This document shows, in pieces, positions 785 through 40,523 of a DNA stretch of 64,000 nt. The first letter of the stretch is position 1. Every line of letters starts with the position of its first letter. This DNA comes from Candidatus Portnoybacteria bacterium (GTDB lineage: Bacteria; Patescibacteriota; Minisyncoccia; Portnoybacterales; GWB1-42-6): positions 32,116 to 96,115 of the forward strand of contig JAQTYI010000003.1 of assembly GCA_028688325.1 (NCBI GenBank). The letters run 5' to 3'. The notes under the pieces were generated by a model that was given only the letters and a program-made list of their open reading frames with translations, searched no databases and was not told the DNA's origin. The position numbers were made by a program, and so were the translations under genes.

Positions 785-3439
785 CTAATACACCCTCCTT
801 ATCTCCGCCCCCAGATAATAATATTTCAGGACCTCCTGATAATTTTTCGCGCCCGTTATGGCAAACCGGCGGCTGCCCGCGGCAGAAAGACCGACGCAGT
901 GATTGCCGCCTCCGCAAATGGACTGCGTATAAGGCGCGCCGATGGGATCCCTCACTCCGCCAGCCAGATATTCAAAACCGGCCTGGCAGAACTGCAAGCC
1001 CCAAATTGAGCAGGCGCTTTTTGTGCCGACCGTATTCAATTCCGGCGCGCCGGAAGAATAAGCCGTAATTATGGGCGAGCCGTTATAAAGCGCCATCTCG
1101 CCCCGCGTGGATTTGACCGCGTCAACCACAGTTGGAGCCGCGGTTTCGCGGACATAACCCTTGTAAAGCTGATCGCTTGAAGTATTATTCAGGATATATA
1201 CTTCGTCCGCTCCGCGCTTGCCGCCTTTCAAAATATAATAATAAGCGTAGGTCCTGGCCGCCACAATCATCGTTTTTTGGTGCTCGACCGGGTCGGTTTG
1301 CGAAATTTCCGCGATGCCCTTAAGATAATCCTCGAGATTCAATTCGTTGACCGCCCAAATCTTATTGGCCTTGGCCGAATAAATTATTTCCACGGCCCCG
1401 CGGAATTGATTGTAATTCAACGACGGCTTCCAGGCCGGATGCTCTTCATAAGAAACGATCGTGACGATTCCGTCGACGGCTTGAGGCGCAATTTTCACAA
1501 AAGCGCCGGAAGCAACAGTAGGAATATTATAGACATAGTTCTCGTTGGCATTCTTTGCCGCGATTATCTGCCCGGATTTATCCAAAATATTATAAGCCGT
1601 GCTGGCGGTTAAAGTAACGCCGGGCGTTAACACCTCATAAATTGCTGCCCTCATCTTGGGTTCGGAGCCGGTTATTGGCACAGGCGTCGACGAAGGACTC
1701 GGCGAAGGGCTAACAGAGGGCGTGGCGCTCGGAGAAGGAGAAGCAAACGGACTCGGGCTGGCGGATGGCGCAAGCAACGGAGACGCCAAAGCCGCTCCGC
1801 GATACAGAACATGGAAATCCTGCGCCGCGATCACCCGAACGCTGGCCCATTTATATTTTTTCTTCTTGAAAGTCGCGCCATCTATCAATATCGGCTGGCC
1901 GCCGGATATCAGATAAACATTATTCTCGTCTTTGGGCCGCAAAAGAGTCCCCTCTTTATATTTTACATAATCGCCCGCCGGATAATAAGCCAGTTCCTCC
2001 GCCGGAATTTTTTTAATCTTTGACCAGCCATATTTCAGATTCAAGAATATTTCCGCGCTGATAAATCGCTTGGGCTTGCCGCCCTCAACCAAATAAACGG
2101 CTTCCTGGTCGGCCGCTTGCAAAAGCGTGCCGTCCGGATACGACAAGACCGCGCCGTCCAGATAATTTTTCAGATCCGCCGGAGCCAATTTCACTTTGGA
2201 CCAGCCATAGCCCAGCGCGACAAACAATGCGCCGGAAGGAACCCAGCGTTTTTTTCCGCCCTGAATGAGAAAAACCCGCCGGCCGTCGCTTAAGAGCTGT
2301 TTGTCGGGCCCGTATTTAACCGCGTCCGCCTCTTGGTATATGTTCAGGTCGGATTCTTCAACAACGCGCACTCTGGCAAAGTCAAAACCCAGTTGTGCAA
2401 ATTGTTTTGCCGTAACATTCAAATTTCTCTTTTTCCCGTCTTGTATCAGATAAATAGTCGGCTCGCCTGTAATTTGCAGGAGTGAGCCGTCCGGATATTT
2501 TAAGAATCTTGATTCGGAAAAAAGATCCAGCTGACTCTGTGAAATCGCGATTGATTTTTGGTAAACTCCGCCCGCGTTAGCATACGACGGCAAGTCATCA
2601 TAAATCTGGCGCGTGCCGCTGAAGATTTTATAAATTTTAGGCAAGCCGTCAACTTGGTAAATATAATTTTTATATTCGGCGGCAAAAGCCGCGGCCTCCC
2701 GGCGAAGACGGCTAAAATCAAGAGACCCGGGATCGGGATTGCCTTTTTCCACATCCTTATGCCCCACGATTATCGGCCCATTGTATAAACTGCTGAATTC
2801 GCTGGTAACCAGATTCCAAATGCTGGAAGAGCGCACACCCTGAGTATCAAGATTATTGGTTTGCGCCAGCCAAGCGACCAGCCGCGCCAAACTTTGGTAA
2901 ACGGCTTCGGGCGGCTGGATCTTGGCGTAATTGCCAAGCAGCGAAATTCCAATAGTGCCGAAATTGAAATTATCATTGGTACGGTCGACAAAAACATGCG
3001 CGGCGCGCGTGCCGTTTCCGCCGTATCGGCCCTCATAGATTCGGCCTTGCTGGTCGATGATATAGTTATAGCCGATATCTCCCCAGCCGCGCGTTACGGC
3101 ATGATACCGATATATCGCCTGAATGGTGGCAACCGGATTGGGGGTATTATTGCAAGTCGGATTTGACGCGTCGCAACCGGTATCATGAACGATTATCCGT
3201 TCCACCGGCTGATAATCGCTGGGTGAAGCGTTTTTATCAGGCATCCAGGTCATCAAAGCATTAAGCGCGGGGGTATTATCCCAAGTTGAACGGGGCAAGA
3301 TCACCGGCACATTGGAATCGCCATAGGTCGGATTTTCATTCTGCGCTTTGGTCAAGGGCGCAAAATAGCCGCCATTGGATAAAATAAGCGAGAAAATAAA
3401 CAGCCAAACTATGTTTTTGGTTAAGAATTTTCGTAACAT
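785..3439 (-). CDS. Secreted multi-domain peptidoglycan hydrolase: signal peptide, N-acetylmuramoyl-L-alanine amidase (Amidase_2/PGRP), cell-wall-binding repeats, Pro/Ser linker, SpoIID/LytB domain
   Basis: N-terminal hydrophobic signal. HDTG...GWGDIGYNYIIDQQGRIYEGR...AAHV amidase_2 motifs. Five or more repeats of the type YPDGSLLQ...IYLIQDGKKR. SPSPS linker. C-terminal SpoIID-like block ending CVGLSAAGSRRFAITGAKNYQEVLKYYYLGAEI. Confidence 0.7.
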   Translation of the reverse strand: MLRKFLTKNIVWLFIFSLILSNGGYFAPLTKAQNENPTYGDSNVPVILPRSTWDNTPALNALMTWMPDKNASPSDYQPVERIIVHDTGCDASNPTCNNTPNPVATIQAIYRYHAVTRGWGDIGYNYIIDQQGRIYEGRYGGNGTRAAHVFVDRTNDNFNFGTIGISLLGNYAKIQPPEAVYQSLARLVAWLAQTNNLDTQGVRSSSIWNLVTSEFSSLYNGPIIVGHKDVEKGNPDPGSLDFSRLRREAAAFAAEYKNYIYQVDGLPKIYKIFSGTRQIYDDLPSYANAGGVYQKSIAISQSQLDLFSESRFLKYPDGSLLQITGEPTIYLIQDGKKRNLNVTAKQFAQLGFDFARVRVVEESDLNIYQEADAVKYGPDKQLLSDGRRVFLIQGGKKRWVPSGALFVALGYGWSKVKLAPADLKNYLDGAVLSYPDGTLLQAADQEAVYLVEGGKPKRFISAEIFLNLKYGWSKIKKIPAEELAYYPAGDYVKYKEGTLLRPKDENNVYLISGGQPILIDGATFKKKKYKWASVRVIAAQDFHVLYRGAALASPLLAPSASPSPFASPSPSATPSVSPSPSPSSTPVPITGSEPKMRAAIYEVLTPGVTLTASTAYNILDKSGQIIAAKNANENYVYNIPTVASGAFVKIAPQAVDGIVTIVSYEEHPAWKPSLNYNQFRGAVEIIYSAKANKIWAVNELNLEDYLKGIAEISQTDPVEHQKTMIVAARTYAYYYILKGGKRGADEVYILNNTSSDQLYKGYVRETAAPTVVDAVKSTRGEMALYNGSPIITAYSSGAPELNTVGTKSACSIWGLQFCQAGFEYLAGGVRDPIGAPYTQSICGGGNHCVGLSAAGSRRFAITGAKNYQEVLKYYYLGAEIRRVY

Positions 3440-3477
3440 TTCTCCTTAATCGTATCATAAAAATCGGGTTTATTCAA

Positions 3478-3515
3478 AAACAAAGCCCCGCAAAAGCGGG
3501 GCTTTGTTTTGTCTT
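3478..3515 (-). terminator. GC hairpin plus U-run (aaagccccgcaaaagcggggcttt)
   Basis: Perfect stem gccccgc/gcggggc flanked by A/T runs, in the intergenic gap downstream of murC on the minus strand. Confidence 0.5.
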
Positions 3516-3819
3516 GGCGAGACATTGTCTAACCCAAATTAAAAACAAAAAAACAGCAAAAAACTATTGCTGTTGCGGCGGCTGCGTATTGTCTGTGCCG
3601 GTTGAAGGCGAAGAGCTCGGCGGCATTGTCTTGCCGTTCTCCTCCTTCATCGCCCACCAGATTACTCCTCCTATGATAACCAACGCGATGATGGCAAAAA
3701 ACCACATCATAAGGGTTATTTAGAATTACACTTTGAGTATATCCGACCCTGGCAAAAACGCAAGGCCTCCGTGTTTTGCTGCTGTGGACAACTCCCGGCT
3801 CAAGATATAATTTTAAAAA

Positions 3820-3915
3820 TTATAAAATTTTCCCAGCGCGAAAATTTTACTCGCCAGTTTTGCTCGCTCTCCGCCCAGGACGGAACCGTGCCCGCTCACA
3901 AAACTGAGCGTTTTT
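3820..3915. repeat. Structured repeat family 6, inverted copy
   Basis: Reverse complement matches the cores of 6702-6858 and 36107-36270 (aaacgctcagttttg...gcaaaactggcgagt.aaattttc). Confidence 0.55.
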
Positions 3916-3919
3916 AAAA

Positions 3920-5263
3920 TCAATCCCTCGCCTTCTGTTTTAAAACTACTAATTCGGTAAGCTTATAAACATCCCCCGCGCCCATAATCACGCAAATGTC
4001 GCCCGGCTGAAGATTTTTACGCAAATATTCCGCTGCCTCATCAAAATTAGACGCGTAAATAATATTTTCCGATTTACCCTGATCCTGCAGGCGAAGGGCT
4101 AATTTTTCCGAGCTCACTTTTTGCCTGATATCGTCTTTTTCCCTCCCCGTCGCGCTGTAAATCGGTAAAATAATTGTTTTATCTGCCGCGCCGAACGCGC
4201 CGACAAATTGGTCAAAAAAATCGTAAGTGCGCTGGTATTGGTGCGGCTGAAAAACGCACCAGAGTTTCCCTCCCCACTTTGTAAAAGGGGGGTCGGGGGG
4301 GATTTTTTTCAATAGCTCCCGCGCCCCCTCCAGCGTCGCTTTTATTTCTGTCGGATGATGGCCGTAATCATCATAAATTTTGGCGCCATTTAATTCACCT
4401 TTATACTCCATGCGCCGCCAAGCGCCGGTAAATTCATTTAGCGCTTCAACGGCAATTTTTTCATCAATGCCCAAAACTTTCGCCACGGCCAGCGCCGCGT
4501 TGGCATTGGAAACATTATGCTTGCCGGGAATTTTCAGATTCAGTTTTAGCTTATTTTCCGAGCTATATTTTTCAACGCGTAGTTTAAGATCCGCGCTTAT
4601 GAGCTTGGCAACATTTTCGTCTTCGCCATTTACAACTAAGATTCCGTCTTCCGGCAAATGCAAAATATATTCGCCGAAAGTTTCCATGATCTCGGGCAAG
4701 CCGCCTTTATAGGTATCCAGGTGCTCTTCCTCAATATTCAGCAGCACCAAAATCTTCGGCCAATAATTCAAAAACGACTTATCATATTCGTCCGCTTCTA
4801 TCACCAGATACTTACTTGTTCCCGGTCTGAAGTTGCTATTGCCCCACTCTTTGAGTTTCGTGCCCAAGATCACCGTCGGGTCCAGCCCGGCTTTCTCCAT
4901 CATCAAACCGATCATTGCCGTCGTTGTGCTTTTGCCGTGCATGCCGGAAACGGCAATTGTGTATTTTTCACGCGTCAGATCACCCAATGCCGCGGCATAT
5001 TTTTGCGTTTTCACGCCAAGCCGCCTGGCTTCAACCAATTCCGGATTATCCTCTTGCACCGCCGCACTAAATATCACGCAGTCCGACTGCGTGATATTTA
5101 GTGCTTTATGGCCGATGTAAATTTTTACGCCCAACTTTCTCAATTCCGCTACTGTTTCGTTTTTCACCGCGTCCGATCCGCTCACTTCGTCCCCTTGCGC
5201 CAAAAAATACCGCGCCAAGGCGGAAACGCCGATTCCTCCGATACCGATAAAATGAATTCTCAT
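3920..5263 (-). CDS. murC: UDP-N-acetylmuramate--L-alanine ligase
   Basis: MRIHFIGIGGIGVSALA...GMHGKSTTTAMIGL Mur-ligase motifs. A family C repeat lies in-frame at 4266-4304 (FTKWGGKLW). Confidence 0.9.
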   Translation of the reverse strand: MRIHFIGIGGIGVSALARYFLAQGDEVSGSDAVKNETVAELRKLGVKIYIGHKALNITQSDCVIFSAAVQEDNPELVEARRLGVKTQKYAAALGDLTREKYTIAVSGMHGKSTTTAMIGLMMEKAGLDPTVILGTKLKEWGNSNFRPGTSKYLVIEADEYDKSFLNYWPKILVLLNIEEEHLDTYKGGLPEIMETFGEYILHLPEDGILVVNGEDENVAKLISADLKLRVEKYSSENKLKLNLKIPGKHNVSNANAALAVAKVLGIDEKIAVEALNEFTGAWRRMEYKGELNGAKIYDDYGHHPTEIKATLEGARELLKKIPPDPPFTKWGGKLWCVFQPHQYQRTYDFFDQFVGAFGAADKTIILPIYSATGREKDDIRQKVSSEKLALRLQDQGKSENIIYASNFDEAAEYLRKNLQPGDICVIMGAGDVYKLTELVVLKQKARD

Positions 5264-6903: not shown

Positions 6904-8958
6904 ATGCGCCTTTTTGATATCATACCGCTCGCCAGAATTCCCGCCGCCTTGCCTCAAGTTTTGAGCTATTTTTCCGGCCAAAATCTACCAAACGGCGCTT
7001 TGGTCCAAATCCCTTTAGGTAGAAGAAAAGAAGAAGGCGTTGTTGTGGGCGCGCATGACATTGCCGATTACAAAATGGAAATAAAAAGCGCGGATTTTGA
7101 ATTGCGCAATATCAGCAAAATACTTTCGGCAAAACCCGTCTTAACGGCTAAACAAATTGAACTGGCTTTATTTCTGGGCCAATATTATTTTTGCTCACCG
7201 GGAATTTTTATCAAAATGTGTTTGCCGCCAAAAAACACCCTTATTCGTCATTCTGAGCGAAGCGAAGAATCTCTCGCGAATGCGAGGCCCAAAAAACAAA
7301 CCTTAATTCTCGCCCCAACAATAGCCCAAGCTGAAAAAATCTCCACTGGCTATAAAAACGCGGTTTTATGGCACAGCGGCCTTAAAAACAAGCAATTAAA
7401 AGAATCCTGGCAAAAAATTAAAACCGGCCAAGTGCAAACAATAATCGGCACTCGCTCAGCCGTTTTTTTGCCTTTTAACGGCCTGAAAGAAATTATCATT
7501 GAAGACGAGACAAACCCCAACCATAAGTCCTGGGATATGTTTCCTCATTATGACAGCCATATAATCGCGCAGAAGCTGGCGGAAATTTTTAGATGCAAAG
7601 TAATCTATAAAGATTTCGGTCATCCTGAACGAAGTGAGGGATCTAAAAAAGATTCTTCGGCTAATAAATCTCACGCAGTCAGAGTGCGTGAATTCAAACC
7701 GACTATTGTTGATATGAGAGAGGAACTTAAAGACGGAAATTTTTCCATTTTCAGCGTTGATCTTTACGAAGCCGCCAAAGACGCTTTGGCCGAAAATAAG
7801 CAAGTTATCTTATTCATAAACCGTCGCGGCGCGGCGAATTTCGTTCTGTGCCGCGACTGCGGTTATGTCGCCAACTGCCCAAATTGCGATTCCCCGATGG
7901 CATATCATCTGATAAACAATAGGCCTTCTTTATTTTGCCATCATTGCGGCGCCAAAGATATCCTTCCTAAACTTTGCCCCAAGTGCAAAAACTGGCGCAT
8001 CAAAACCGTGGGCTCTGGCTCCCAAAAAGTTGAAGCGGAAACAAAAAAATTCTTTCCGGACGCCAAAATTTCGCGCCTGGACAGCGACAGCGCGCCAAAG
8101 CCCAAAGACCAGCAAAAAATCATTGCTGATTTTATTGATAAGAAAATCGATGTCTTGATAACCACCCAGATAATTTTTTCCTGGCTGGAAGAACTGGCCG
8201 CGGCAAAACCGCAAGTTGTGGGAATATTATCAGCCGACACGCTTTTGCATCTGCCTGATTTCCGTTCGGGCGAACAGACATTTCAGACAATACGAGCATT
8301 ACAATCTTTACAAAATAACGCCCCCCGACCCGCAGCAGCGGGTCTTCCCCCTCTTAAATTAAGAGGGGGCGAGGGGGAGTTATCACAAAACAATTTCATC
8401 ATCCAAACCTACAACCCGGAAAATTCCGTCTTAAAATATATCCGCGATAATGACCGCAAGGGTTTTATCCAAGAAGAAAATGAAACCCGCCAGGCGTTGA
8501 ATTACCCGCCATTCTCGCAAATCGTTAAGCTAACCTTCCGACATCGTGATGCCGACAAAGCCGGGCAAGAAGCAAAAATTTTAGCGGCTAAACTAAATAA
8601 TGCTCTGCCCTCCCTTTCTGTCATTCCCGCCCCGCATCAAGTGCGGGGTAAACTGGAGACGGGAATCCAGGCCCTGACTCTTGAATCTGGATCCCGGGTC
8701 AAGCCCGGGATGACAAATAACAAGTACGCTGATAACATAGAAATATCCACCGCCCTGCCCGCCTTCAATCCGCGCTCGCGCGGAAAATTCGTTTGGAATA
8801 TAATAATAAAATTTCTTTCGGCTGCGGCTCCCTCCTTTTCCAAAGGAGGGTTGGGGAGGATTTTTACTACCTCCGAATTCCTTCAAAAAAGAAACTCTGT
8901 CTTGCAATATGTCCCGCAAAATTGGGAAATAGATGTAGATCCTGAAAATCTATTATGA
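6904..8958 (+). CDS. priA: Primosomal protein N' (PriA-like), apparently lacking the Walker A P-loop; carries five in-frame palindromic repeat insertions
   Basis: 3'BD-like N-terminus. LILAPTIAQAEK block (PriA motif Ia equivalent). CRDCGYVANCPNCDSPMAYH...LFCHHCG...CPKC zinc-binding region. DVLITTQII motif. No GxGKT found where expected. Repeat-encoded segments HSERSEESL, GHPERSEGS, PPLKLRGGEGE, IPAPHQVRGKLET...GSRVKPGMT, SKGGLGRI. Confidence 0.75.
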   Translation: MRLFDIIPLARIPAALPQVLSYFSGQNLPNGALVQIPLGRRKEEGVVVGAHDIADYKMEIKSADFELRNISKILSAKPVLTAKQIELALFLGQYYFCSPGIFIKMCLPPKNTLIRHSERSEESLANARPKKQTLILAPTIAQAEKISTGYKNAVLWHSGLKNKQLKESWQKIKTGQVQTIIGTRSAVFLPFNGLKEIIIEDETNPNHKSWDMFPHYDSHIIAQKLAEIFRCKVIYKDFGHPERSEGSKKDSSANKSHAVRVREFKPTIVDMREELKDGNFSIFSVDLYEAAKDALAENKQVILFINRRGAANFVLCRDCGYVANCPNCDSPMAYHLINNRPSLFCHHCGAKDILPKLCPKCKNWRIKTVGSGSQKVEAETKKFFPDAKISRLDSDSAPKPKDQQKIIADFIDKKIDVLITTQIIFSWLEELAAAKPQVVGILSADTLLHLPDFRSGEQTFQTIRALQSLQNNAPRPAAAGLPPLKLRGGEGELSQNNFIIQTYNPENSVLKYIRDNDRKGFIQEENETRQALNYPPFSQIVKLTFRHRDADKAGQEAKILAAKLNNALPSLSVIPAPHQVRGKLETGIQALTLESGSRVKPGMTNNKYADNIEISTALPAFNPRSRGKFVWNIIIKFLSAAAPSFSKGGLGRIFTTSEFLQKRNSVLQYVPQNWEIDVDPENLL
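8619..8716. repeat. Family A palindromic element (tgtcattcccgcccc...ggatcccgggtcaagcccgggatgacaa), full copy inside priA
   Basis: Near-identical copies at 9923-10030 and 12823-12920; short forms at 28852-28882, 47986-48016, 18784-18844, 191-217. Confidence 0.7.
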
Positions 8959-10791: not shown

Positions 10792-10978
10792 TTATTTCAC
10801 CTCCCTTCTTGCCCTCCGAAGCGTTTGCGCGGGAGGGCCGGATAAACAAAACCCGCATCCCCTTCAAAAAGGGACCCGGGTTAAACACATTTATTATCGA
10901 CCAAAATTTCCATTACTTTTATTATGAGCCCAAACAAAAACCCCGTCCATAGGCGGGGTTGTGGATAAATAAACTATT

Positions 10979-11152
10979 GCACCGGGAGGGAATCGGCCTC
11001 GGCTCTCGACTCGCAGTTTACCCGAACATAATCGAGGGGCGCTCCTCGGCCTGGCCACCGGCTCGCAGCTTCGCCTGCTGGCGAAACATCGCTCCGCCGT
11101 TCGATTCCTTGCGCGAGCCAAGCAGTTGGCTCGCTCCATGCACAAAAAAATA
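10979..11152 (-). other. tRNA-associated mini-element ending in a direct repeat of the tRNA-Lys 3' end
   Basis: 10979-10995 gcaccgggagggaatcg duplicates tRNA 11207-11223. The internal sequence shares long blocks with the element at 33341-33479 (gagcgagccaa.tgcttggctcg, ggaatcgaacg.cggagc, ggtggccaggccgagg). Confidence 0.55.
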
Positions 11153-11205
11153 ACTCTGGCGGGTTACTCTTTTTTGTTTACCCTGGGTTTATTTAAATCG
11201 AAAGG

Positions 11206-11278
11206 TGCACCGGGAGGGAATCGAACCCACGACCGTCTCCTTAAAAGGGAGCTGCTCTACCGACTGAGCTACCGGTGC
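11206..11278 (-). tRNA. tRNA-Lys (anticodon UUU)
   Basis: Manual fold. Acceptor GCACCGG/CCGGTGC, D-arm GCTCAGTCGGTAGAGC, anticodon stem GCTCC/GGAGA with loop CTTTTAA, T-arm GTGGGTTCGATTCCCTC (one U-U mismatch), discriminator A. Confidence 0.7.
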
Positions 11279-11425
11279 GCAACTACGCTCCGATTTTCAT
11301 CGGAGCTTCGATGGGCAAGCATTGAGTCAAGTAAACTGCTTGTCCGTCCGAAGCTCAAATGTAATGCGAGCGGAGGCGGAAGCTACCGGTGCGCACTTAA
11401 TAATTTACCATATTTTACAGAAAAA

Positions 11426-32446: not shown

Positions 32447-33337
32447 TTAATAATTTACCAGCTTCTCCGTTATCGATTCCAGCCAGTCATCGGCATGGAA
32501 ACGCCGGATGATATACCTAAACTTGGGTTGCTGGTCAATGATTTTATACACACTGAAGGCCGCCTGATAGCCGGCTTCTTTGGCAAGCTGAATGACATGG
32601 TCGTTATAGCTTCCGCCGGGATAAGCGAGTAAATCAACTTTTTTGCCGATCCTTTCCTCCAATATTTTTTTACTGCCCGCGAGCTCCGCGCTTAATTGCT
32701 TGTCGTCAACTTTGTTCATAGCCGCGTGATCCAAAGAATGGCTGCCTATGCTCATGCCGTTATCGCTCATTTCCTTAACCTGCTGCCAAGTCATAAAATC
32801 CCTTTTATCTATCCAATCGGTCGTAATAAAGAATGTCGCGGTCATACCGTATTTTTTAAGCAGAGGATAAGCCCATTTGTATTGGCCGTAGCGGCCGTCG
32901 TCAAACGAAATAGCCACGGCTTCTGGCGGCAATGGCTTGCCGGTATCAAAATAATCCAGCAGATCATAAACCGAAACTATCTGATAATTGTTGTCTTTAA
33001 AATATTTCAAATGCGCCTCAAAGCCCTCCGGCGAAACAGTAAAAGCGCGGTCTGTGATAGTTGAGCTGGCAACATCGGGCATTGGCCGGATGTGGTGATA
33101 ATTGAAAACCGGAAATTTTATAACAGCGTTATCAGCCGGCTTTTGATAGCTCGGTTCAGGTGTCATCTCGGCGCTTGAAGGCAGCGGCTCTTGCGTTAGG
33201 GTTCTTTGCGGCAATAAAGTCGGAGTCGATGAATTATTGATTTGCACGGTATTTTCCGCTCGCATCCAATTATAAAAAACCGCTCCGATAGTGGCCAGCA
33301 GCATCAAAATAAGAAAGATGAAAAAAGCTTTTTTCAT
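32447..33337 (-). CDS. Polysaccharide deacetylase (NodB-homology) with N-terminal membrane anchor
   Basis: FDDGRYGQYKWAYPLLKKYGMTATFF...SIGSHSLDHAAM motifs. Start reassigned to MKKAFFIFLIL; the tracked ORF runs into the tRNA-associated element. Confidence 0.8.
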   Translation of the reverse strand: MKKAFFIFLILMLLATIGAVFYNWMRAENTVQINNSSTPTLLPQRTLTQEPLPSSAEMTPEPSYQKPADNAVIKFPVFNYHHIRPMPDVASSTITDRAFTVSPEGFEAHLKYFKDNNYQIVSVYDLLDYFDTGKPLPPEAVAISFDDGRYGQYKWAYPLLKKYGMTATFFITTDWIDKRDFMTWQQVKEMSDNGMSIGSHSLDHAAMNKVDDKQLSAELAGSKKILEERIGKKVDLLAYPGGSYNDHVIQLAKEAGYQAAFSVYKIIDQQPKFRYIIRRFHADDWLESITEKLVNY

Positions 33338-33340
33338 TGG

Positions 33341-33479
33341 TAGCCCTACGGGGAATCGGCCGCGGCTCTCGGCTCGCCATCGCTCGCCTCGGCCTGGCCA
33401 CCGCCTCGCCAAATTTTCCGCTGAAAATTCGGCTCCGGCGTTCGATTCCCGACACGAGCCAAGCAATTGGCTCGCTTGC
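33341..33479 (-). other. tRNA-associated mini-element ending in a direct repeat of the tRNA-Glu 3' end
   Basis: 33341-33358 tagccctacggggaatcg duplicates 33497-33514. Internal blocks are shared with the 10979-11152 element. Confidence 0.55.
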
Positions 33480-33496
33480 TTTTATGGTATTTATAG

Positions 33497-33568
33497 TAGC
33501 CCTACGGGGAATCGAACCCCGATTTTACGGATGAGAACCGTATATCCTAGCCGTTAGATGATAGGGCC
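33497..33568 (-). tRNA. tRNA-Glu (anticodon CUC)
   Basis: Manual fold. Acceptor GGCCCTA/TAGGGCT, anticodon stem TACGG/CCGTA with loop TTCTCAT, T-arm GGGGTTCGATTCCCC, discriminator A. Confidence 0.7.
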
Positions 33569-40111: not shown

Positions 40112-40365
40112 ACCCTTACATTATATTCCACTTTCATAAAACCCGTCAACCACCCTGTTCCACTCGAACCGTTAATCCTCCCTTAATTTTTCGCGAACAA
40201 CAAAAAACGGCTCAATCAAGCCGTTTCTCCTTGCTATACACTATAAGCTATACGCTATAAGCTATTAAATTGTCCCCCATTTATCCCCAAGGGTATTTTG
40301 GGTGGGCACATCTGGATTCCAGCCACGGAACCCTTTCGATGCCTACCCCGTTAAACTTTTGGGTG

Positions 40366-40450
40366 TGGATGATAATGGACCCGAACCACTGACCTTTCCA
40401 ATGTGAACCCTTCGACAAGCTCAGGGTAAATTTCGCGCTCTACTTCAGCT
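40366..40450 (-). other. Degenerate tRNA-Val-like sequence (pseudo-tRNA) just 3' of tRNA-Val
   Basis: Shares GTAGAGCG, the TTCACAT anticodon loop, AGGTC variable region and a TTCGGGT T-loop with the tRNA. The anticodon stem does not pair and there is a 21-nt insert. Confidence 0.35.
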
Positions 40451-40451
40451 G

Positions 40452-40523
40452 TGGGCAATGCTGGGATTGAACCAGCGGCCTTTCCGATGTGAACGGAACG
40501 CTCTACCACTGAGCTAATTGCCC
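40452..40523 (-). tRNA. tRNA-Val (anticodon CAC)
   Basis: Manual fold. Acceptor GGGCAAT/ATTGCCC, D-arm GCTCAGTGGTAGAGC, anticodon stem TTCCG/CGGAA with loop TTCACAT, T-arm GCTGGTTCAATCCCAGC. Confidence 0.75.

Follow-up and report, generated by a model that had tools for sequence, protein, structure and literature searches.

In a 64,000-nt stretch of a metagenome-assembled genome (MAG) of Candidatus Portnoybacteria, here called the window and covering 64 kb of the 789-kb genome, the gene for tRNA-Glu(CTC) is directly followed on its 3′ side by a strongly folded, protein-less mini-element of about 155 bases. All features are given in the orientation of the minus strand, on which the tRNA lies. 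The mini-element is bracketed by an exact 19-nt direct repeat, GTAGCCCTACGGGGAATCG (plus strand), at 33340-33358 and 33496-33514, an offset of 156 nt, and this repeat corresponds to nucleotides C56 to A73 of tRNA-Glu(CTC) plus C74. The initial annotation of this DNA, made from the letters alone, had reported an 18-nt duplication of the tRNA-Glu 3′ end; the duplication proved exact and one nucleotide longer than claimed. The segment between the two repeats is 137 nt long, non-coding and 65% GC, compared to 46.5% for the window, and a GC scan of the 64 kb placed only 0.26% of 135-nt intervals at or above 64% GC.

A second copy lies behind tRNA-Lys(TTT). There, 18 nt of the tRNA-Lys 3′ end recur exactly, at 10978-10995 and 11206-11223, and neither of the two exact repeats is anywhere near what chance would give. 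The two copies align with a mean column identity of 74%. Block GCGAGCCAAYTGCTTGGCTCG is found at 33455-33475 and 11114-11134 (chance expectation 0) and block CGGTGGCCAGGCCGAGG at 33387-33403 and 11044-11060 (chance expectation 0.09), and neither occurs anywhere else in the window. Block GGAATCGAACGSCGGAGC is likewise common to both copies, as is GAGYCGAGAGCCG with one mismatch between them; all four blocks that the two elements had been claimed to share align computationally. No open reading frame (ORF) is present within the repeat brackets of the window copies (137-230 nt).

Distribution, empty sites and turnover

The same core is present at no fewer than 14 loci, plus one truncated copy, in genomes and metagenomes of Patescibacteria (loci outside the window carry L numbers). 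Copies were found by a two-block pattern scan of species-representative genomes and then of metagenome contigs, and orthologous loci were fetched afterwards. The metagenome pattern was too GC-rich, with about 110 of the 120 matches listed being chance matches in high-GC DNA, so the size of the family is underestimated. Seven tRNA species were identified as targets (Glu-CTC, Lys-TTT, Arg-CCT, Arg-TCG, Ala-GGC, Gly-CCC and Leu-TAA), and three more distinct tRNA-like displaced ends occur with the tRNA itself out of sight, in L048 and L067 at contig ends and in L052, where the 210 nt of upstream sequence available contain no tRNA. Every copy is oriented like its tRNA and ends in that tRNA's own 3′ end from T-loop position C56 onward, and exact repeats with intact tRNAs are seen at 12 other loci besides the two window copies. 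Complete copies all measure 130-250 bp, with repeats of 18, 19 or about 23 nt, and of about 85 nt in L033. The MAG GCA_022709865 (loci L001 and L234) contains three copies. Closely similar cores occur at different tRNAs, with one P4 hairpin common to L025, L033 and L067 and another to L002 and L062. The element is carried by only part of a genome's tRNAs, by two of seven in L001 and two of three in the window, where tRNA-Val is without a copy; a covariance model and an nhmmer profile run over the 1.7 Mb of examined DNA found no further copies. This distribution, with the core at 14 or more loci and at least seven tRNA species, each with its own tRNA 3′ end, bears out the proposal that the pair in the window belongs to a family and is not a chance remnant. 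The accompanying claim of mobility is supported by the distribution and by empty tRNA-Lys sites with the same flank in close relatives, not by an identified enzyme.

A search against Rfam 15, at the gathering score and at E values up to 10, matched only the tRNAs and no family for the element, and inspection by eye of either strand found no hammerhead, canonical kink-turn (the internal loops are 3x2 and 3x4, not 5x2) or cloverleaf. A viral origin was considered and rejected, as none of the 91 IMG/VR matches to a 16-mer was a real copy, and blastn against phage and plasmid collections gave no match to the element. The literature searched contained no description of such a family. Taken together, the element appears to belong to an apparently undescribed family of protein-less insertion elements in Candidatus Portnoybacteria and related Patescibacteria. 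The MAG labels may mislead here: L002 is labelled 'Saccharibacteria' and yet is syntenic with Portnoybacteria.

Filled and empty sites can be compared at tRNA-Lys. The element is present in the window, in L234-L236 (neighbouring protein 83% identical) and in L002 (70%, synteny confirmed), and is absent from L231/L232 (89%) and L237-L239 (75%), so that filled and empty sites are interleaved among relatives. In the empty sites, tRNA-Lys-CCA is joined straight to GTTTATTTATCCACA and a terminator, the same flank as lies beyond the distal repeat in the window. Judged by this alignment, the element is a real insertion, present or absent at orthologous tRNA-Lys sites, with the empty site intact. The CCA found after distal repeats was considered as a sign of a mature-tRNA (retro) origin and rejected, since all 25 tRNA genes inspected (window, L001-L062) have C74 and about one-third encode a full CCA while the rest do not, and since, as the empty sites reveal, the gene originally ended in CCA.

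Relatives also differ at tRNA-Glu. In L218/L219, from the same species and 99.2% identical from 33494 on, a gene for a 567-aa large serine recombinase replaces the element. This gene (L218 2592-4295, L219 1-957; Resolvase and Recombinase domains) runs with its 3′ end into the tRNA-Glu 3′ end, and the mini-element's left junction is no further than 0-3 nt from the junction so formed. In L227 (LexA 83% identical, same synteny), an orphan 420-aa ORF is followed by the last third of the core and the repeat only; this bracket spans 3219-4650 and is also seen in L228 and L229. The 420-aa protein contains no Pfam domain and had only two database matches, itself and one weak partial. In L225, nothing recognisable lies downstream of tRNA-Glu. 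At tRNA-Gly(CCC), L004 (1-463) contains two tandem units of linker, element and repeat with a period of 195 nt, compared to a single one in L017 (787-1056), and the distal repeat is lost in L234 and decayed or lost in L039 and L017. The tRNA-Glu variants and the tandem units of L004 indicate that the locus is a hotspot at which the element is gained, duplicated, truncated and lost. The cores of L001a and L001b are identical and end sharply at block B2 (Table 1) and at GGCCAATT, and the adjacent hairpin differs at about 8 positions. We rejected this pair as proof of recent transposition because such sharp limits of identity fit gene conversion better; the GGCCAATT junction in L001b is compatible with either target duplication or gene conversion.

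Two further arrangements were observed. In the window, two decayed copies of the 3′ half of tRNA-Val(CAC) (40451-40523), beginning with its anticodon loop, lie behind the gene at 40361-40432 and 40281-40345; they look like displaced fragments of past integrations at the anticodon-loop position. In L062 (12-635) and L094 (3913-4914), the gene for a 334-aa Xer-like tyrosine recombinase runs towards the tRNA-Leu copy and ends about 30 nt short of its distal repeat, outside the bracket. This is the sole locus with an adjacent recombinase; no third repeat copy was found within 5 kb of it.

These neighbours raise the question of whether the element is an inert scar of integrase islands, its repeat being attL/attR and its core a conserved island end from which the interior was deleted. 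Islands in tRNA genes are classically recognised by a repeat that reaches from the T-loop to the end of the tRNA (PMC4383910). The serine-recombinase island at the same tRNA-Glu end in L218/L219, the orphan ORF inside the same bracket in L227, the tyrosine recombinase abutting the distal repeat in L062/L094 and the decayed tRNA-Val copies would all fit a locus used by islands. We nevertheless consider a scar quite improbable. No full-length island with the core beside its end was found, the complete copies keep to their narrow size range with none in the viral, phage and plasmid collections, and one core family at seven or more tRNA species would require a matching attachment site for each. 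The recombinase adjoins one locus only, outside the bracket, and a scar would not preserve a fold through compensatory changes of the kind described below. As candidates for a protein partner, the orphan ORF of L227 and the tyrosine recombinase of L062/L094 were both set aside, the latter being adjacent in a single locus and lacking the third repeat copy.

Fold of the core and its transcription unit

Both window copies fold alike into hairpin H0 and then a three-way junction, closed by the pairing of GGGAAUCG with CGAUUCCC of the displaced tRNA end. The parts of the tRNA-Glu copy are listed in Table 1.

Table 1 Features of the element behind tRNA-Glu, its sister copy and its flank in the window
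Feature	Position	Strand	Basis
tRNA-Glu(CTC), intact; last 19 nt are the proximal repeat	33496/7-33568	-	ARAGORN; Rfam tRNA, 57.3 bits
AT-rich linker TATAAATACCATAAAAGCAA, left junction of the insertion; length and sequence differ among copies	33476-33495	-	comparison of copies
Hairpin H0 = block B1 GCGAGCCAAYTGCTTGGCTCG: GCGAGCCAA-TTGC-TTGGCTCG	33455-33475	-	fold, repeats
Block B2 GGGAATCGAAC, part of the second block of the initial annotation	33440-33450	-	inverted repeats, fold
Arm P2: helix CGCC/GGCG, conserved GGA/GA internal loop, then variable hairpin	33401-33440	-	folds, alignment
Arm P3/P4: GA-rich internal loops, variable terminal hairpin	33358-33400	-	alignment, folds
Block B3, invariant CGGTGGCCAGGCCGAGG, in arm P3/P4	33387-33403	-	alignment
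Block B4, invariant GAGAGCCGMGGCC, in arm P3/P4	33358-33370	-	alignment
Distal copy of tRNA-Glu 3′ end, C56-C74	33340-33358	-	repeat, fold
Sister copy behind tRNA-Lys(TTT)	10978-11134; tRNA 11204-11278	-	same architecture
Polysaccharide deacetylase gene, flank and not element; true start ATG 33337-33335	32447-33337	-	orthologue alignment

The identity of the same-species contigs L218/L219 with the window stops at 33494, at the linker. H0 is a perfect hairpin of 9-18 bp with a 4-nt loop in every copy, placed 3-10 nt ahead of B2; in L001b, L052 and L234 it shows a compensatory change from G-C to A-T, and other loci have a different perfect hairpin in the same place. B2 is the reverse complement of tRNA nucleotides 53-63, the T-loop and the start of the 3′ strand of the T-stem. 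In the predicted fold, its bases 33443-33450 form the 5′ strand of the closing helix P1 and CGATTCCC (33351-33358) the 3′ strand, leaving the acceptor-strand part single-stranded. The P2 helix reads CGGC/GCCG in the tRNA-Lys copy, and the P2 hairpin has a stem wholly different in sequence between subfamilies and a loop that is always AGCR. The left part of the tRNA-Lys copy is longer and includes a terminator-like hairpin. In L234 (2126-2180), also behind tRNA-Lys, the tRNA end CCCGGTGCAC, the terminator hairpin and GTGCACCGGG make up one perfect extended palindrome, of which a degenerate version is kept in the tRNA-Lys copy of the window as GTGCATGG at about 11140-11147.

The fold energy of the tRNA-Glu copy is 4 standard deviations better than that of shuffled sequences, while that of the tRNA-Lys copy is not outstanding (z = -0.9), and the comparison among copies is more telling. 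Across 15 copies and 24 pairs, 95.8% of cells are standard pairs, compared to 29-40% when the partners are slid. Double changes occur in 8 pairs (3.0±1.2 in shuffles) and 19 cells (3.9±1.7), with none of 500 shuffles attaining the observed value on any measure, and folds of single sequences recover the same structure. In P2 a C-G pair is swapped to G-C, the helix below the variable hairpin runs through G-C, U-A, C-G and A-U, and the variable hairpins keep their shape with unrelated stem sequences. P1 tracks the T-loop variant of the resident tRNA (CGACT, CGAAT or GATCC), B2 follows T-loop variants in L033, L067 and L052, and B2 and the displaced end covary as GGGAGTCG/CGACTCCC, ATTCG/CGAAT and GGGGATC/GATCCCC. 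The fold predicted for a hairpin-rich conserved interior was thus found, together with compensatory changes. Helix 4, in arm P3/P4, is 100% paired and 7 of its 10 pairs never vary, and this invariance makes P3/P4 uninformative about pairing; as far as sequence can tell, it indicates sequence-specific recognition.

The strand is weakly resolved. G-U cells outnumber A-C cells by 22 to 4, but 14 of the G-U cells come from one invariant pair. Of 12 copies, 8 fold better as the sense strand. These pairing counts would also suit a folded strand of DNA. Going by these substitutions, the structure, as RNA or as a folded single strand, is under selection. B2 is able to pair with either copy of the tRNA end, and with the proximal copy it is predicted to form a long hairpin tipped by H0; in L234 a perfect 10-bp copy of the acceptor strand lengthens this proximal pairing.

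Beyond the distal repeat, at a distance of 5-45 nt, 11 of 14 copies have an intrinsic terminator in the sense of the tRNA. As the empty sites show, this terminator belongs to the tRNA itself, so the element sits inside the tRNA transcription unit. An extra terminator-like hairpin stands ahead of the element in L002, L234, L052 and the tRNA-Lys copy of the window. A promoter-like site lies upstream of tRNA-Glu, and transcription of the tRNA probably continues into the element, making it a trailer RNA. On the other side, two bases, CA, separate the distal repeat in the window from the ATG of the deacetylase gene, and the orthologue in L227 has before it a spacer of about 62 nt with promoter-like hexamers that is absent in the window. 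From this arrangement we infer that the deacetylase operon is probably transcribed here by read-through from the tRNA-Glu promoter. The ORF called at 32447-33466 had been suspected of inflation by 43 codons, and this is confirmed: alignment with the orthologue starts only at residue 44, which is the ATG at 33337-33335, indicating that the first 43 codons are read from the element. Exact-protein look-ups for the window's deacetylase, Fmt and channel protein returned no record.

A trailer of this kind could be a resident functional non-coding RNA kept for the host, with a 3′ end that mimics the T-stem and the 3′ strand of the acceptor (plus CCA) and acts as a decoy, processing signal or switch for tRNA 3′-end metabolism; its spread to other tRNAs would then be rare duplication. 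The core structure is kept by compensatory changes among the syntenic copies of the window, L234 and L002, and such evolution of syntenic copies favours a host function of the transcript. Also in keeping with it are the invariant blocks of 17-23 nt, the GA-rich internal loops and the GC spike, all typical of structured RNAs, the position within a tRNA transcription unit, the excess of G-U over A-C cells and the better fold of the sense strand. Further, the distal repeat tracks an acceptor-stem difference (GGTGCA in the window and GGCGCA in L002), the perfect inverted copy of the acceptor 3′ strand in L234 would complete a minihelix, and unrelated elements behind tRNA-Glu in L224, L226 and L230 likewise end in a T-stem, an acceptor-like strand and CCA. 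Set against these points, close relatives are entirely without the element at the same tRNA, it is half-deleted in L227 with the locus retained, the distal repeat is decayed or lost in L039, L017 and L234, only some tRNAs per genome carry it, most of the G-U cells trace to one pair, and in L002, L234 and L052 a terminator separates tRNA and element. We therefore regard a resident RNA as unlikely.

The elements of L224 (2560-2680), L226 (840-970) and L230 (3580-3737) are different structured elements of 100-160 nt. They consist of a hairpin and then a long stem, CCCCGCACC...GGTGCGGGG, and end in the 3′ strand of the T-stem, the acceptor-like strand and CCA (e.g., AAATCCCGGTAGCGGTACCA). Their acceptor part differs from tRNA-Glu by two bases, and the R1 covariance model does not detect them. 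They suggest that the copying of tRNA ends is a trait of a wider class of elements.

Insertion at tRNA 3′ ends and relation to known systems

Given the empty sites, the range of targets and the conserved fold, the element is probably a non-autonomous, trans-mobilised insertion element specific to tRNA 3′ ends. It would insert at the tRNA's 3′ end, between the tRNA and its terminator, leaving the tRNA intact and a second copy of its last 18-19 nt, from T-loop nucleotides 56-58 to nucleotides 73-75, beyond the element. On one strand, B2 would pair with the displaced tRNA end and close the three-way junction, and B2 may help to select or hold the T-arm of the target. The movement itself would be supplied in trans.

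Within this proposal, we lean towards an insertion that duplicates its target. Staggered breaks would fall in the T-loop (at about nucleotide 57/58) and just past the discriminator (at about nucleotide 74/75). The inner boundary is fixed in the T-loop, and the outer one usually follows C74 and is sometimes 4 or about 65 nt further. Staggered breaks are the simplest account of tRNA-specific repeats at many tRNAs, of a fixed inner and a variable outer boundary, and of a conserved right end combined with a variable left end. The tRNA-Lys gene of the window provides a second example. An exact 15-nt repeat, AGCTACCGGTGCGCA, at 11267-11281 and 11381-11395 duplicates the 5′ end of tRNA-Lys and flanks a unique 99-nt insert (within 11267-11395) that folds as one long hairpin (-42.9 kcal/mol), indicating that this tRNA gene was also hit by a small insertion of another kind, again with a long target duplication. 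The varying repeat length and this 15-nt duplication around an unrelated insert both favour target duplication. A less probable route within the same proposal is recombination in the T-loop by a small circle with a tRNA-end copy of its own. Where the repeat lies and how the hotspot behaves agree with this route, but it requires a new attachment site for each tRNA.

Target duplication might also be reached through RNA, with the trailer transcript reverse-transcribed and inserted at tRNA genes in the manner of a short interspersed nuclear element (SINE), either by target-primed synthesis or through a hybrid tRNA-element cDNA that recombines via the conserved T-loop. Such a route fits the asymmetry of the ends, a conserved right (3′) end and a variable 5′ part that is entirely missing in L033, and the perfect palindromes right at the left junction in L025, L062 and L234, as expected after snap-back synthesis. 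The range of repeat lengths, the highly transcribed unit, the sense-strand bias of the structure and a repeat that begins at a stretch common to all tRNAs, suited to a microhomology join, are consistent with it too. There is, however, no reverse transcriptase to point to: neither motif nor gene was found in the window or the other loci examined, there is no A-tail, and the CCA after the distal copy is no evidence for a mature-tRNA template. We rate this mechanism as rather unlikely. Similarly doubtful is a guiding role for B2, which in L234 amounts to a whole antisense tRNA 3′ end. In that scheme B2 would read the T-arm of the tRNA gene or of the tRNA and guide a host or helper enzyme, so that a change in B2 would retarget the element, or the transcript would act as a mimic of the tRNA 3′ end in tRNA end metabolism.

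Several observations weigh against a trans-mobilised insertion element. No mobilising enzyme was identified and no circular or excised form shown; among the 57 ORFs of the window there is no tyrosine or serine recombinase (phmmer with one of each) and no Y[AVILMCT]DD motif of the reverse transcriptase type. Terminal inverted repeats are absent and the left end is variable and AT-rich, so this is not a classical DNA transposon; the sole inverted repeat, B2 with the displaced end, is internal on one side. The gene-conversion reading of L001a/L001b removes one argument for recent movement. The tRNA-Lys copies of the window, L234 and L002 lie in conserved synteny, so that this copy at least has long been passed on vertically, its core changing by compensatory substitutions; such change in place looks more like kept function than a purely selfish relic. 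There are also hints that the repeat is borne by the element: in L025 the distal repeat differs from the tRNA at one base, where it matches the repeat of its sister element L033, and in L039 it resembles another tRNA-Gly allele. The proximal and distal differences in L025 and L039, at 1-4 bases, are compatible with either order, and the repeats are identical in most copies. Finally, the sample is small, at about 15 copies.

We compared the element with the closest known kinds of insertion and structure. Elements integrating in tRNA genes are as a rule islands of kilobase size, each with an integrase of its own and a single preferred tRNA. Their sublocation classes, including one with crossover in the T-loop, were reportedly set out by Williams in 2002. 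Like the element, such islands lie on the 3′ side of the gene, leave the tRNA intact with a repeat from the T-loop to the tRNA end, occur in tandem arrays and use tRNAs that other islands also use. The element differs in its size of 130-250 bp, in having no integrase or other gene within the bracket, in placing one conserved structured core at seven or more tRNA species, in a repeat that reaches about 85 nt in one copy and in its internal antisense copy of the T-arm. Islands and prophages placed in tRNA genes by tyrosine integrases are the subject of the Islander database (PMC4383910).

The casposase of A. boonei duplicates a 15-bp target at the 3′ end of tRNA-Pro and requires the adjacent T-loop region (PMC5137440). 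Casposons, which use a Cas1-type integrase, resemble the element in duplicating a long target (14-19 bp) where a tRNA gene ends, in a target that includes the T-loop region, in occasional aberrant duplication lengths and in tandem arrays. The element, in contrast, is without terminal inverted repeats, no Cas1 or polymerase gene turned up in the window or the loci (no Cas1-specific search of the window ORFs was run), its duplicated segment lies inside the tRNA (nucleotides 56-74) and not mostly after it, and its host is a Patescibacterium.

Miniature inverted-repeat transposable elements (MITEs) and integrase-less, cis-mobilisable derivatives of integrative elements are small, non-coding and multicopy and are presumably moved in trans. 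The element shares small size, non-coding sequence, several copies per genome and presumed movement in trans with MITEs, but it targets one functional gene class at a fixed position, and only one of its ends is conserved. Its duplication is long and tRNA-specific, from 18 to about 85 nt, not short and of fixed length, and its interior is an invariant three-way-junction fold without terminal inverted repeats, not a simple palindrome.

Integron attC sites and the attP hairpin of CTX phage, which is used by XerCD, are recombination sites made of folded single strands. As modelled for the element, two inverted segments about 100 nt apart would pair there to rebuild a duplex identical with the target; the structure of the variable arms is more conserved than their sequence, and one strand is favoured. 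Unlike these sites, the element has a core strongly conserved in sequence, its target is the T-arm of a tRNA, and no dependence on IntI or Xer is shown. Among tRNA-like RNAs and trailers are viral tRNA-like structures, mascRNA and the 3′ETS-leuZ sponge of E. coli. The element seems to share with them an origin from a tRNA transcription unit and a 3′ end in which T-stem and acceptor strand are copied, with CCA often coming next, but it has no cloverleaf, most copies lack the 5′ strand of the acceptor, and a tRNA model scores the real tRNAs only. Since the element lacks a defining feature of each of the closest known kinds of insertion and recombination site, we file it as a variant of tRNA-gene-targeting insertion elements with a new structured core.

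Several other short, palindromic and GC-rich repeat families, with 4-7 copies each, were observed in the window, for example at 386-411, 7247-7272, 7619-7644, 4271-4300 and 8687-8715. Two copies of GTCATYCTGARCGAAGYGARGRATCT lie in frame within the PriA gene and encode HSERSEES-like insertions.

In practical terms, the element inflates ORF calls (by 43 false codons here), creates calls of tRNA fragments and marks recombination hotspots in assemblies of Patescibacteria. The targets of this gene-less unit of 130-250 bp span seven or more tRNA species, and at each of these the tRNA end is copied exactly and a matching antisense segment is present. If target duplication is true, an enzyme that measures about 17 nt from the T-loop would be involved, a matter of interest alongside casposases and CRISPR adaptation. 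Should insertion be guided by the antisense segment, the element would be a natural, minimal and retargetable insertion system, a protein-less mobile element that carries its own guide. If it acts mainly as RNA, it would represent a new class of tRNA-linked structured RNA in Patescibacteria, a phylum with very reduced RNA-processing machinery.

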